From: a phage
Direction: 5' to 3' (one strand)
DNA: 64,000 bases
Sequence record: PX670417.1
Under the pieces are notes generated by a model. That model saw only the letters and a list, made by a program, of their open reading frames with translations. It did not search any database and had not been told where the DNA came from. Of this stretch, positions 24,742-28,289 are shown in pieces. The position numbers and the translations under genes are program-made. The first letter of the stretch is position 1. Every line of letters begins with the position of its first letter.

Positions 24742-24925
24742 TTAAGCAGTTCTTACCCAAGCCATTAACTTATAGAACTGGTTAGTAACACTGAATGCTG
24801 AACCAGAACCTGTACCACCAGTGTTACCACTAACTGTGTGGGTGTGAGCACCAATAGCTATTGCGTGAGCATGCTGCGCACCGTGGTCAGTATAACCACT
24901 TACAGAGTGGGTGTGGTCACCACCC
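24742..24925 (-). other. out-of-frame C-terminal extension of tail fiber gene (HxH-repeat tip) reachable by a 1-nt change in a G6 run
   Basis: Frame shifted relative to 24917-27094 encodes ...[32 protein letters not shown]...AFSVTNQFYKLMAWVRTA, homologous to the C-terminus of fiber 27141-28289. Confidence 0.6.
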
Positions 24926-27094
24926 CCCATCAGTGTAACCCGGACCTGTACCGATTCTACCACCACCACCACCAGAATAGTGTGTAGAGTTCTGACCAAT
25001 CCACGAGATAGCGTGGTTGTGGTGACCAGCAGATGAAGTAGAACCACTTACAGCGTGTGAGTGAGCACCATTGACAACAGTTTCTTTTACACCATAATCA
25101 AAAGATGAAGTGGTAGCAGAGAAACTATGAGTGTGTGATGGTAAGTTACCAACAGCTAACGCCACAGAATCTGAACCACCAGTTGTAGCAACATCTGAAC
25201 CGTTTGCTGCTGCAATTCTGATAGTTCTACCAACACCATTGTTGAGGTACGTCCAAGTTAGACCAGGCAGTGCTGTATTAGGGTCAACATTACTGTTAAA
25301 CCATGTCACAATACCCACTGGATAGATTTTATTAAGGTCTGTAGAGTCACTTACTGCCTGTGCAATCTTCTGGTCAGTCTCTGCTTTAGTGTATGCACCA
25401 ATTTCTGAAGGGGTTGGTTTCTGAGCTTCGTTGTAAACCTTAGACCATCCAGCCTCAAAACCATGTGCGTCTCTGGCTGTTCTGTACCACATCCCACCAT
25501 TTTTATAATCAAACATCAATTGTGCAGCAGGTGTTGATGCTCCCGTATTAACGAACATATGCGAGACTAAACGGCTTGCCCCACCACCCTTAATCATCTC
25601 AATATAAATTCCTGAAGGTTGATTCCAAGCTACGCCACCATCTTCTTCTCTTACTGTGCCTCTGGCTGCTGACCAGATATACTTTGAATCGGTTGCAGAT
25701 TTAACGTAGTATCTAGCATCTAAGTTAGTCCAGTCTTGTGGTTGTACCTGTCCATTAATATACAGGCTCTTATTCACACTAACCAATGCTTGCTCTAGAG
25801 AAATTTGAGTGCCTGAAAAGCTGTTATTCAAGGCTACCACGTTAGAGCTAGCGCCTCCTACACCTAGCCACCACCTAGATACATTCGCAGTATCAACGCC
25901 ACGAATATACAAACCTTGATTTTGTGTCAAATTCTTAACAATCAACCCTTCATTGTTAGCAACAATAGTCTGTGTATTCGTGAAAGTATTAGACACATTA
26001 AGTTTAGCAAGATTACTCAGAGTTCCTGCTGGGATGTATCTAGAGTCAATATTAGTCCAATCTGAAGGCTGAACTTGTCCAGTGATTTTTACAGTCTTGC
26101 TGAATGTAGCACCAGACGAGTCTAAGACCATCGAGGTGTTGCCCTTATAATCGTGTAATGTGGTACTATAGTTTGCACTACCCTTACCAAGATACCACAA
26201 GTTATTATTTTCACTATCTTTTGCTAGGATGAATAAAGATTCATTTGTAGATTTATTTTGCAGCATGATAGCAGCAGAATTAGAGATGATGTTAACAGCA
26301 TTATTGAATGTATTTAAACCACTAAAAGTATTATTAGCAGTTAACTGTGCAAATCTCTGATTAGCTGCTGTCTGAGTAAAGTATCTAGCATCTAAGTTAG
26401 ACCAATCAGAAGGCTGTACTTGACCAGTGATTGCTAAAGACTTATTAACAGAGATATTGCTTGCAACAGTCACTGCTGAGTTGTATTTGTTGTTATACAG
26501 GCTTACTGCATCATCGCCATTGCTACCAATACCAATCCACCATCTAGCTGAACCATCTAGGTTTACACCCTCAATGTATTGTGCATTATTTGCAATCTGG
26601 TTTCTAAGGCGAAGTGCGTTACCATCACTTTGAATACTCTGATTTCTAGAGAATGTGTTTGTAACAGCAAGCCTTGCATATCTTGCATCATTCTCTTCAT
26701 TAGTTCTCATCCCAAGTTCATTAGGGCTTGGCTTATTCAGAGTATGATAAACAGTTGCCGACCTTGAAGCATCTGCAATAGTCAGTTTAAGACCATTTGC
26801 ATTGATTTTAAAAGTCTTTAAAACATCCCCCATAGTAATCTCAGAAGAGTCTGTAGGGTCAAATACGGCCTTACCACCATAAAGTAACTTGACAATTCCT
26901 AAGTCACCCGTCATAGTGCTACCAGCAATCTGGACAAATCTTTCTAGTTTAAAAGATGCTAAGAAGTCTTGATAGGTCATTCGACGGTCTTCATCACCTA
27001 ACATTTCAGGTCTCTTTTTGACCCTGACATGAAGAAGGTCGTCAGAACGGATTGTGTCGATTGAGTTTAATTCACTCAACTTGTAATCTGCCAT
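24917..27094 (-). CDS. tail fiber protein (as sequenced, truncated at homopolymer tract before conserved C-terminal tip)
   Basis: 725 aa; repeated SDWxNxDxRY motifs; ends GPGYTDGGW directly at C6 run 24923-24928. Confidence 0.65.
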   Translation of the reverse strand: MADYKLSELNSIDTIRSDDLLHVRVKKRPEMLGDEDRRMTYQDFLASFKLERFVQIAGSTMTGDLGIVKLLYGGKAVFDPTDSSEITMGDVLKTFKINANGLKLTIADASRSATVYHTLNKPSPNELGMRTNEENDARYARLAVTNTFSRNQSIQSDGNALRLRNQIANNAQYIEGVNLDGSARWWIGIGSNGDDAVSLYNNKYNSAVTVASNISVNKSLAITGQVQPSDWSNLDARYFTQTAANQRFAQLTANNTFSGLNTFNNAVNIISNSAAIMLQNKSTNESLFILAKDSENNNLWYLGKGSANYSTTLHDYKGNTSMVLDSSGATFSKTVKITGQVQPSDWTNIDSRYIPAGTLSNLAKLNVSNTFTNTQTIVANNEGLIVKNLTQNQGLYIRGVDTANVSRWWLGVGGASSNVVALNNSFSGTQISLEQALVSVNKSLYINGQVQPQDWTNLDARYYVKSATDSKYIWSAARGTVREEDGGVAWNQPSGIYIEMIKGGGASRLVSHMFVNTGASTPAAQLMFDYKNGGMWYRTARDAHGFEAGWSKVYNEAQKPTPSEIGAYTKAETDQKIAQAVSDSTDLNKIYPVGIVTWFNSNVDPNTALPGLTWTYLNNGVGRTIRIAAANGSDVATTGGSDSVALAVGNLPSHTHSFSATTSSFDYGVKETVVNGAHSHAVSGSTSSAGHHNHAISWIGQNSTHYSGGGGGRIGTGPGYTDGGW

Positions 27095-27107
27095 TATAAA
27101 TTTTCCT

Positions 27108-27130
27108 CTTAAAAGGGGCTATAAAGCCCC
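27108..27130 (-). terminator. hairpin GGGGCT-ataa-AGCCCC with U-run between the two fiber genes (terminator/attenuator)
   Basis: Minus-sense hairpin followed by UUUUAAGAGG then ATG of downstream fiber gene. Confidence 0.45.
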
Positions 27131-27140
27131 TGTAAAGAAA

Positions 27141-28289
27141 TTAAGCTGTTCTCTGCCATACATACAATACGAAGGATGGCTGTTCAACGCTAAATGCTTG
27201 ACCAGAACCAGTTGTGCCAGTTGTGCCAGAGTGAGAATGCTCACCTGCTCCGGTTACTGTTACTGTTGCTGAGTGGTTGTGAGAACCAATTGCAACAGTG
27301 TGGCTGTGAGCACCAATCCCAACCGTGTGATTATGCGCACCAATTGCTACAGAGTGAGTGTGGTTGTTAGCTGTTGTCAACGTAGCTCTTGGGTCATAGC
27401 TTGCCCCCTCAACCGATAAACCTCTCCAGCCACCATCAGCATAGCCACGGTTAATGAATGTTGTTTGTGTTAAGCCAGCAGCACTGGTTGTTCTGTTGCC
27501 ATAGTCGTAAGTAGATACGGTCTTGGTTCCGTAGTCAAACGTTGTAGTCCCTTTAGTGCCATAATCAAAAGCACTGATAGAGGCCGTTGCACCATGAGTG
27601 TGACCACCACCAGTGACGTACACTGAGTGGGTATGTGCAGGGATGTTATTAACCGTCAGTGCAGCAGTCTGTGAACCAAACGTTGAACCAACTGGCCTAG
27701 AATCACTATCATAACCTACAAGTGCTCTCCCTTTTGAGACTAACTCCCAAGTACCCCCACAAATTAAATATGTAGAGGGGTTTGCAGGATTCATAGAGAG
27801 ATGGATAGTACCTACTGGATAAGAAGCCTGAACAGCCTTGTACAAGTTATTTACTGCTCTTGCTGTAGCATACTTATCTGCATCTTCATTATAAAGGTTA
27901 GATGTTGTCCAGTTCTGGACATTACTTAAACCAACCTGCGCCTTAGTTGTATTGTGTGGGTTACTCTTGTCATTAATATGCTGTTGAATAAGACTATTAA
28001 CCTCTACTGAAGACATAATCTGTAGATTTTTTCTTGCCTCAGCTACATTAACAATATCTGATAAGTTATTTGCAGCAACTAACTGAAGAGCATTAATAAC
28101 ATTATCTAAACCAATTTGTGTTTTAGTAACACCATGAGGGTTATTTCTTAGGCTTGAGTGTGGAGCAAGTAATTGCTCAAGAGTACATCTCTTATCCTCA
28201 ATACCCTGCTTAAGATGGAAGATATCACTAAGGTCAATTGGTAAGGCTGCTTGAGGCAAGGCACTAATTTGAATTTCACCTACTGCCAT
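27141..28289 (-). CDS. tail fiber protein with His-rich (HxH repeat) C-terminal tip
   Basis: 382 aa; repeated NPHxxTKxQxGLxNV motifs; C-terminal [31 protein letters not shown]. Confidence 0.65.
   Translation of the reverse strand: [382 protein letters not shown]

Follow-up and report, generated by a model that had tools for sequence, protein, structure and literature searches.

Gp37-type His-rich tips in the two tail fibre genes of a Felixounavirus genome, and a single-base frame break in the longer one

The tip of the T4 long tail fibre, formed by gp37 (PDB ID: 2XGF; Bartual et al. 2010), is built from a collar, FDYGTK units, HxH motifs on both sides of a head-forming segment, and a hydrophobic C-terminal strand that ends in R-x-A. 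It has seven HxH motifs and seven Fe sites, each an octahedral His6 site holding Fe2+, and the head is the segment that contacts the receptor (PMC12609058, PMC11705849). This tip caps a jointed, four-protein fibre of ~1,400 Å, for which the chaperones gp38 and gp57A are required (PMC12609058, PMC11705849). The first report that both fibres of a Felix O1-like phage are C-terminally homologous to the T4 gp37 adhesin concerned gp74 and gp75 of vB_EcoM_VpaE1 (Viruses 2015, PMC4690856). The fibres of phage Bas63 were described by cryo-EM in 2025; the short one has seven HxH motifs, and the long one has six together with an HHxH (Sci Adv 2025, PMC12609058). Gp37-type tips on both Felixounavirus fibres are thus already known, and describing the fibre architecture once more adds nothing new. 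Shigella phage Sf14 belongs to a different genus (fibre 51.99% identical to that of Bas63) and likewise has two fibres, gp52 and gp53, the longer of which carries a Mu-S-like domain and a gp37-like distal tip; gp50 and gp51, the fibre chaperones of Mu, have no homologues in its genome. In lambda PaPa, the loss of the side tail fibre (stf), reportedly attributed to a frameshift by Hendrix and Duda in 1992, is a case in which a single-base frameshift splits the fibre gene in a propagated stock while the phage stays viable.

We analyzed a 64,000-nucleotide stretch of phage DNA (PX670417.1), referred to here as the window. It is the genome of a Felixounavirus (Felix O1-like) coliphage whose closest relative is Escherichia phage JohannRWettstein (Bas63). 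The two genes considered here very probably encode trimeric Felix O1-like fibres that end in T4 gp37-type tips, the gene of the long fibre being frameshifted in this sequence. They share genus, gene order and domain plan with Bas63 gp26 and gp27, both of whose tips consist of a gp37-like collar, needle and head (PMC12609058). The features are collected in Table 1. The short fibre is 99.5% identical to bas63_0026 and matches the tail fibre family PHROG 2097 (E = 1e-128). In contrast, the window long fibre shares only about 80% identity with that of Bas63, is mosaic (body repeats and needle patches differ) and is frameshifted; its 725-aa ORF covers positions 1–699 of the 780 in PHROG 4277. The platform role of the gene next to the short fibre is taken from the description of Bas63 gp25 (PMC12609058). 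Two small ORFs (24465–24662 and 24097–24468) sit between the long fibre and the terminator-like hairpin, and neither matches a tail-fibre assembly family in PHROGs, where their function is unknown. The exact 725-aa and 382-aa proteins have no identical entry among 15 billion sequences. Unlike the T4 tip, those of the window end single-protein fibres, of 382 aa and, after repair of the frame, 783 aa.

Table 1. Features of the fibre locus in window coordinates; outgoing and returning strands are named after the published hairpin topology (PMC12609058).
Feature	Positions	Strand	Remarks
Terminator-like hairpin, bidirectional	24067-24090	none	Separates the end of the fibre operon from convergent thyA
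Long fibre, stranded end (+1 frame)	24742-24922	minus	Inferred returning strand (HxH 727, 741, 750) and C-terminal segment
Long fibre, main ORF as written	24917-27094	minus	725 aa, ends GYTDGGW*; truncated counterpart of Bas63 gp27
G6 run (C6 on plus strand), single-base insertion	24923-24928	minus	Breaks the long-fibre frame
Long fibre, inferred outgoing strand and head, up to the frame break	24923-25144	minus	HxH 654, 678; HHNH 691-694; head 697-724
Long fibre, collar domain	25145-25333	minus	Residues 588-650; aligns with short-fibre collar
Long fibre, Mu tail fibre S-like / Pfam gp37_C domain	25340-25660	minus	Residues 479-585
Long fibre, three ~113-aa body repeats	25691-26740	minus	Residues 119-238, 239-355, 356-468; each ends QPSDWxNxDxRY
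Short fibre gene, intact	27141-28289	minus	382-aa ORF; counterpart of Bas63 gp26
Short fibre, conserved C-terminal segment	27144-27221	minus	Conservation 0.72-0.80; aligns with long-fibre C-terminus
Short fibre, inferred returning needle strand	27222-27365	minus	HxH 310, 319, 328, 337, 351; includes the 27-nt array
Short fibre, variable segment, predicted head at the hairpin turn	27366-27503	minus	About residues 263-308
Short fibre, inferred outgoing needle strand	27504-27644	minus	About residues 216-262
Short fibre, collar domain (T4 gp10/gp11/gp12/gp37 type)	27645-27854	minus	About residues 146-215
Long-fibre platform protein	28292-28594	minus	100 aa; bas63_0025 99% identical; counterpart of Bas63 gp25

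The body of the long fibre contains SDWxNxDxRY units, as the initial annotation had pointed out; there are three, and each closes one of the body repeats (SDWSNLDARY at residue 229, SDWTNIDSRY at 344 and QDWTNLDARY at 453). The repeats are 35–42% identical pairwise in a self-alignment, give three Pfam gp37_trimer matches (E = 4.8e-67) and show a weak match to the T7 gp17 tip (4A0T). They are followed by a domain that resembles the Mu tail fibre S/S' (8JU3, E = 1.8e-22 over residues 479–577; Pfam gp37_C, E = 1.2e-14). The collar of the long fibre reaches 22.7 bits for Pfam Gp10_C, below the 27-bit cut-off, and is 94–98% identical across the 8 full-length long-fibre relatives compared.

The His-rich tip that the initial annotation assigned to the long fibre (GDHTHSVSG...RTA) does exist, but it lies in a separate ORF (24742–25047, minus strand), +1 to that of the body; the two reading frames had been joined and the break between them overlooked. 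An uninterrupted ORF of ~780 aa that runs from the baseplate-binding N-terminus to ...MAWVRTA, as expected of a Felixounavirus long fibre, is absent as written and is restored by removing one G from the G6 run. The resulting protein has six HxH motifs (654, 678, 692, 727, 741, 750) and, in addition, the HHNH listed in Table 1, and HxH is enriched in its C-terminal module (shuffle P = 6e-4). The insertion sits where the head meets the returning strand, so that the last 59 residues, with three HxH, are left in the +1 frame. A tblastn search with Bas63 gp27 gave the same picture, with residues 1–725 in one frame and 724–784 in the next. In the alignment, dune, EcF-vB, warpig and Bas63 have G5 at this site, while finno and VpaE1 have no run; three metagenome contigs read GAGGG. 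These contigs carry the closest short fibre, P0121, together with the neighbouring gene, and in all three the long fibre is an intact 784-aa protein, a different allele from that of the window. Among the listed long-fibre matches, the record-side lengths differ from the query by one base or by a non-multiple of three. The 6-G allele is absent from the IMG/VR, JGI metagenome and GTDB genome collections, and the long-fibre gene is intact in every relative examined. In these comparisons, the G6 insertion is peculiar to this sequence, and either very recent or artefactual. We give roughly equal weight to a sequencing error and to a genuine knock-out.

The extra G may be a sequencing or assembly error, the true phage having G5 and an intact 783-aa long fibre; to this we assign nearly an even chance. 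The G6 is the sole G/C run of six or more in the window, and the longest G/C homopolymer is a classic overcall site of pyrosequencing, Ion Torrent and nanopore reads. Besides the allele's absence from every other database sequence, the stranded tip shows no sign of decay: its last 26 residues (GSGxAFSV...W.RTA) are identical at 26/26 positions in seven of nine relatives and at 96% in the other two, which also bears out the conserved terminal segment noted at the outset. Broken or frameshifted long-fibre calls are known in other public assemblies, such as P0083. On the other hand, among the 89 Bas63 coding sequences that match the window (94 compared), the long fibre is the only one split over two frames, and three further differences from Bas63 in homopolymer length that were checked each recur in other deposited phages at 100% identity. 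With the other 88 coding sequences unsplit and these length differences being genuine shared polymorphisms, there is no sign that the window suffers from homopolymer errors in general.

Conversely, the extra G may be a real and recent knock-out of the long fibre, with the phage infecting its propagation host by the short fibre alone, which we hold to be a little below an even chance. There is a precedent in lambda, whose lateral tail fibres were lost by mutation (PMC8594841); the lambda PaPa frameshift is experimentally established, whereas for the window a real mutation and an error are about equally likely. Bas63 virion classes show zero to six long fibres in place (PMC12609058), and the short fibre of the window has a complete gp37-type tip of its own. 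A second lesion unique to the window lies in a tRNA and combines a substitution with a deletion, a pattern atypical of sequencing artefacts. However, the long fibre is not known to be dispensable in any Felixounavirus, and the relatives examined have all kept the gene intact. Should the frameshift be real, the isolate would offer a natural way of testing if Felix O1-like phages can dispense with their long fibre.

It is very unlikely that the break is tolerated or used, by a +1 slip on G GGG GGU, by a slip at UGG UGA C, or by a restart at an ATG. A one-base slip of tRNA-Gly in the G run would re-pair perfectly and restore the D-G-G-G-D of the relatives, and the break is located in a Gly-rich loop that joins head and needle. 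In the 0 frame, translation would stop at a UGA with C as the next base, two codons past a G-rich Shine-Dalgarno-like run, an arrangement that loosely recalls the prfB frameshift site. The stranded tip is preceded by an in-frame ATG (24928–24930) that lies 11 nt upstream of this stop, and a restart there would give chains of 725 aa and 62 aa. Against this, the site is unconserved, with an open frame and G5, GAGGG, GCTGC or AATGA in the relatives; the ATG is a mere D-G codon junction found in all of them, and re-pairing of tRNA-Trp on GGU would be poor. A programmed +1 ribosomal frameshift of the prfB type was rejected on the same grounds, namely the open frames and differing sequences of the relatives. 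A phase-variable poly-G tract of the kind known from receptor-binding genes of Campylobacter phages was also rejected, as the run is only G6, the relatives have G5, GAGGG or no run, and no other length variant was seen. The prospect of a real G6 in a phage that nevertheless produces the long fibre, either through low-level tRNA-Gly +1 slippage or as a two-chain fibre with the 62-residue peptide supplied in trans, is slimmer still. If true, the peptide of such a two-chain fibre would supply the returning strand and three metal sites, making it a natural gp37-type needle split at the head–needle loop.

The tRNA lesion affects the anticodon loop of a tRNA-Arg and is the second base-level oddity unique to the window; it would be compatible with careless sequencing as well as with mutations in the stock. 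ARAGORN reports a 2-base anticodon for this tRNA. We considered it as a suppressor of the G-run frameshift and rejected it, since it is a tRNA-Arg(ACG) with a loop shortened to 6 nt and not one of 8 nt.

The short fibre ends in His-rich HxH repeats, as originally described: the quoted string is present, and seven HxH motifs occur, at residues 219 and 230 and at the five positions of the returning strand in Table 1. About 1.0 would be expected, and none of 20,000 composition-preserving shuffles gave seven. The repeat unit of nine residues is coded by a 27-nt tandem array (27273–27356). The collar matches Pfam Gp10_C (E = 1.9e-17). The putative outgoing strand, which carries HxH 219 and 230 and three FDYGTK-type units, aligns with a segment of T4 gp37, and HxH 310, 319, 328 and 337 pair one-to-one with NHSHT, DHSHS, AHTHT and SHGHT of that protein. 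Between the two sets of HxH, in the place of the T4 head, lies a variable segment that has the lowest conservation among 28 short-fibre relatives, with an identity of 0.13–0.32 compared to 0.8–0.9 in the collar, and a pLDDT below 50 in the predicted model, which is of the monomer. By analogy with T4, this segment is likely to be the receptor contact.

The initial annotation spoke of a resemblance to the metal-coordinating His tips of T4-type fibres. Judging from the alignments, the relation goes beyond mere resemblance, and the His repeats are homologous to the metal-coordinating HxH of the gp37 tip. With phmmer, residues 146–352 of the short fibre align with positions 18–229 (of 242) of the 2XGF chain at E = 7.5e-15, the homology taking in the C-terminal 240 residues, and residues 647–762 of the repaired long fibre align with it at E = 2.2e-11. 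The HxH motifs fall on either side of the central segment as 2 + 5 = 7 in the short fibre and 3 + 3 = 6, plus HHNH, in the long one, the counts published for Bas63 (PMC12609058). It is scarcely credible that the repeats have no relation to the gp37 needle and form just a generic region of low complexity or one that scavenges metal: compositional bias is strong (HMMER bias scores about 25 in the 2XGF alignments), but the alignment runs from the collar through the FDYGTK units and the head position into four successive HxH in register with 2XGF, a profile of the 66-sequence family matches 2XGF at E = 3.1e-26, and for the Bas63 fibres, which are nearly identical, the needle is visible in AlphaFold and fitted cryo-EM models (PMC12609058).

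We propose that each tip homologous to gp37 consists of a collar domain followed by a long needle, in which the chain would go out along the needle, turn at its far end in a small variable head and come back. Homology, motif counts, conservation pattern and mosaicism were computed here, and the trimer, hairpin topology and metal binding are taken from the published T4 gp37 and Bas63 structures. Three such out-and-back chains would form a six-stranded beta needle, and one HxH from each of the three would build one octahedral His6 metal site. The short fibre would thus have seven such sites and the long one six, with an HHxH in addition, and these would rivet the needle together. The metal bound in these fibres might be Fe or Zn, or some other ion. 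After the final HxH come the ~25 conserved C-terminal residues; they probably end at the collar, because the published topology brings the chain back to it. The 725-aa product as written would lack the returning strand and three of the six metal sites and should fail to form the needle. Since the HxH sites would rivet the needle, the His repeats are best regarded as scaffold; receptor specificity, directed at the LPS core in these phages, most likely resides in the variable head between the HxH strand sets.

A modular exchange of receptor-binding domains, which had been read from the shared tips, is not borne out for the two fibres of the window. The tips are distant paralogues, with no recent exchange between them, as their alignment shows only 30% identity and has 27% gaps. 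What they have in common is the scaffold of collar, His needle and C-terminal strand, and the heads of the two fibres are unrelated. Exchange of sub-modules does take place, but between phages. The long-fibre tip of the window has a Bas63-type head (100%) in P0007-type needle strands (88–91%), and needle patches 670–682 and 733–747 switch jointly between Bas63 and P0007 type while the intervening head is unchanged, as expected if the patches pack against each other. This arrangement shows that heads are swapped in nature independently of the needle. In genomes of Erwinia, Serratia, Providencia and Photorhabdus, tips that are ~50% identical occur on fibres whose N-terminal domains differ. The long-fibre head of VpaE1 is of a different type, 29% identical to that of the window over residues 697–724, and its host specificity also differs (E. 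coli B-type truncated core). Compared with T4 gp37, the head sequences are unrelated and the long-fibre needle is shorter (PMC12609058).

For engineering and host-range inference, the useful unit is the head that the His strands flank, rather than the repeats themselves. Annotated as written, the long fibre would appear as two products, a fibre cut short and a small 'hypothetical protein', and a host-range prediction from that receptor-binding protein would rest on an incomplete tip. The naming of the two fibres also calls for care, as the Bas63 GenBank names are opposite to those of the paper, with the 382-aa protein labelled 'long tail fiber protein'.

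By sequence comparison, the two fibre tips of the window are directly homologous to the receptor-binding tip of T4 gp37. In a phmmer search of all PDB chains with the short fibre, this tip (2XGF) ranked first (E=7.5e-15), followed by T4 gp10 chains, and residues 146-352 aligned to chain residues 18-229 of 242. The long fibre, once repaired by removing one G, matched 2XGF at E=2.2e-11, and a profile of 66 family members reached E=3.1e-26. Collar and FDYGTK units are both included in the alignment, and four HxH motifs in a row keep register with those of T4, in line with the resemblance to T4-type metal-coordinating His tips suggested in the initial annotation. 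The Pfam Gp10_C collar was detected in the short fibre (E=1.9e-17) and scored 22.7 bits in the long fibre, under the cut-off of 27. Modelled as a monomer with AlphaFold2, the short-fibre tip had a mean pLDDT of 69, with confidence in the collar only and values below 50 in the head, and Foldseek recovered gp10-type collars only (E ~5e-3 to 3e-2). The model thus agrees weakly with the gp37/gp10 family, as can be expected for a lone chain of an intertwined trimer. The tip architecture described earlier is essentially right, but it had been published before. For VpaE1, both fibres of a Felix O1-like phage were linked by C-terminal homology to the T4 gp37 adhesin in 2015 (PMC4690856), gp37-like tips were seen structurally on both Bas63 fibres in 2025 (PMC12609058), and the longer fibre of Sf14 has been reported with a gp37-like distal tip.

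The fibre locus (24600-28700) matched 236 phage records, nearly all Felix O1-like (genus Felixounavirus). The best match was Escherichia phage JohannRWettstein (Bas63), with 95% identity and 89% query coverage. The gene order is the same in both: baseplate wedge 2, wedge 1, long-fibre platform, the 382-aa fibre, the ~784-aa fibre and two small ORFs. The GenBank names of Bas63 (MZ501086) are inverted relative to the cryo-EM paper: the 382-aa gp26, the paper's short fibre (4044-5192 of record stretch L001), is called 'long tail fiber protein', and the 784-aa gp27, the paper's long fibre (1643-3997), merely 'tail fiber protein'. Both small ORFs matched only PHROG families of unknown function, and neither matched a tail-fibre assembly chaperone family in PHROGs. 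The 123-aa ORF is labelled holin in some relatives.

Coordinates of features discussed in the text
Feature	Position	Strand	Remark
G/T-rich short-repeat patches (two)	~18741-18904 and 20266-20440, within 18700-20450	+	
Bidirectional terminator-like hairpin	24067-24090		Separates fibre operon from convergent thyA/DHFR genes
Two small ORFs, 65 aa and 123 aa	24097-24662	-	Directly downstream of long fibre
Long-fibre tip ORF, His-rich	24742-25047		+1 frame relative to body
Long-fibre body ORF	24917-27094	-	Stops after 725 residues, GYTDGGW-stop
Six-G run	24923-24928		Cause of frame break
In-frame ATG	24928-24930		Upstream of tip
Short fibre	27141-28289	-	382 aa
27-nt tandem array	27273-27356		Encodes HxHxVxIGx repeat
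tRNA cluster	47991-53552	-	25 genes, including tRNA-His(GTG) and tRNA-Gly(TCC)
tRNA with odd anticodon loop	49928-50002	-	Rfam 54.6 bits; 6-nt loop CUACGA; ARAGORN: 2-base anticodon

The short fibre, 99.5% identical to its Bas63 counterpart, carries seven HxH motifs (residues 219, 230, 310, 319, 328, 337 and 351), four of them within the nonapeptide repeat HxHxVxIGx. About one is expected from composition, and seven were reached in 0 of 20,000 shuffles, which confirms the His-rich repeats noted from the sequence. Among 28 relatives, identity to the window was 0.83-0.92 in the collar, 0.6-0.76 in the His strands and 0.72-0.80 in the C-terminal segment; in the hypervariable stretch that separates the two His-strand sets (residues ~263-308) it was 0.13-0.32. 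In T4, seven iron ions are held by HxH motifs along the needle axis (PMC12609058). From the conserved His strands and the hypervariable head segment, we propose that the His repeats would form a metal-riveted scaffold of the needle, with the head as the likely receptor contact. For the window fibres, we infer trimer formation, metal binding and the receptor role from T4 and Bas63.

The sole new element, missed by the initial annotation, is a frame break in the long fibre. The long fibre had been described as ending in an HxH tip; the tip sequence does exist, but out of frame with a body ORF that stops short of it. Removing one G restores a 783-aa protein (used here for residue numbering) that is collinear with the 784-aa genes of relatives and contains six HxH motifs and one HHNH. 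The reported SDWxNxDxRY repeats of the body are present as three ~113-residue units, each closing with QPSDWxNxDxRY; they are 35-42% identical pairwise, and Pfam gp37_trimer matches them three times. Pfam gp37_C is also found, in the same region (residues 479-577) that matches the Mu tail fibre S protein (8JU3, E=1.8e-22). Identity of the long fibre to Bas63 is only ~80%.

At the break site, the related phages dune, EcF-vB, warpig and Bas63 read GATGGGGGTGGT, with five G; a G run is missing in finno and VpaE1, and the sequence is GAGGG in three metagenome contigs. The 71 bases around the run have a 100% match in no phage record; in the best matches, dune and warpig, 66 query bases align with 65 record bases at 98.5% identity, a one-base gap being the sole difference. 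Over a 409-base query span, all 60 listed relatives differ in length by one base or a non-multiple of three. Scans of IMG/VR, JGI metagenomes and GTDB genomes gave no hit to the six-G allele, which, across these comparisons, is unique to the window. The stranded tip has not decayed: it retains the HxH motifs, and 7 of 9 relatives compared share its last 26 residues exactly. Therefore, the break is either very recent or artefactual. The 725-aa product would be without the returning strand and three of the six metal sites, and needle formation should fail.

A single homopolymer miscall has close to an even chance of being the cause, as the site is the only G/C run of at least six in the 64-kb window. 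However, the sequence is not generally error-prone. Of 94 Bas63 CDSs searched against the window with tblastn, 89 had a match, and 88 of these align in one frame, full length or nearly, the long fibre being the only one split. Moreover, three other homopolymer-length differences from Bas63 (~4437, 13524, 55155) are common to other deposited phages at 100% identity. A true knock-out of the long fibre, comparable to the known stf frameshift of lambda PaPa, we consider about as likely as the miscall, likewise at just under an even chance. Recoding or split-protein production is very improbable and finds no comparative support, although a +1 slip of tRNA-Gly inside the G run would restore the wild-type D-G-G-G-D, an in-frame ATG lies ahead of the tip, and a C follows the UGA that stops the 0 frame. 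A 123-aa long-fibre fragment in NCBI (P0083, from a 90,041-bp contig of a Felixounavirus-like assembly) leaves the reading frame after ...AVGNLPS (LIVSLRQPL...); thus, broken long-fibre calls are not unique to the window.

The shared tips had been attributed to modular exchange of receptor-binding domains. This does not hold for the window's own pair: at 30% identity with 27% gaps (E=2e-11), they are old paralogues with a common scaffold, not as a recently exchanged domain. Exchange does happen between phages on a finer scale. In the long fibre, which is far less like its Bas63 counterpart than the short fibre is, the needle patches at ~670-682 and ~733-747, which flank the head, switch jointly between the Bas63 type and that of the long-fibre relative P0007. 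In the window, these patches are 88-91% identical to P0007, and the head is 100% identical to the Bas63/dune/warpig type. P0007 itself carries a VpaE1-type head, which shares 29% identity with that of the window. Such joint switching fits the behaviour expected of strands that pack together and, like the conservation pattern of the short fibre, appears consistent with the published hairpin topology, in which the chain follows the needle outwards, forms the head and turns back towards the collar. In Erwinia, Serratia, Providencia and Photorhabdus genomes, fibre proteins whose N-terminal domains differ (Pfam PF03406, PF12571) carry tips ~50% identical to the long-fibre tip.

Elsewhere in the window, the two G/T-rich patches, the second with 10/15/30-nt periods (e.g., GGTAGGGTCT), flank ORFs 19029-19631 and 19634-20074, to which none of the compared Bas63 CDSs corresponds; bas63_0038, the Bas63 CDS at the same position, has no match in the window. 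Lying between DNA ligase and the next conserved gene, the region resembles a hotspot for variable insertions. At ~16220-16290, the window lacks the putative homing endonuclease bas63_0046 (30207-30734 of record stretch L007), which in Bas63 adjoins the DNA polymerase gene. In relatives, the odd tRNA is a normal 76-nt tRNA-Arg(ACG) with loop CUACGAA, present at the corresponding place in garuso, FO1a and TH10 and absent in Bas63. The window version has C for T in the last stem pair and one A fewer, and was found in 0 of 139 related phage records (best 97.4%, 75 query vs 76 record bases). Possible readings are decay of an accessory tRNA, an error or altered decoding.
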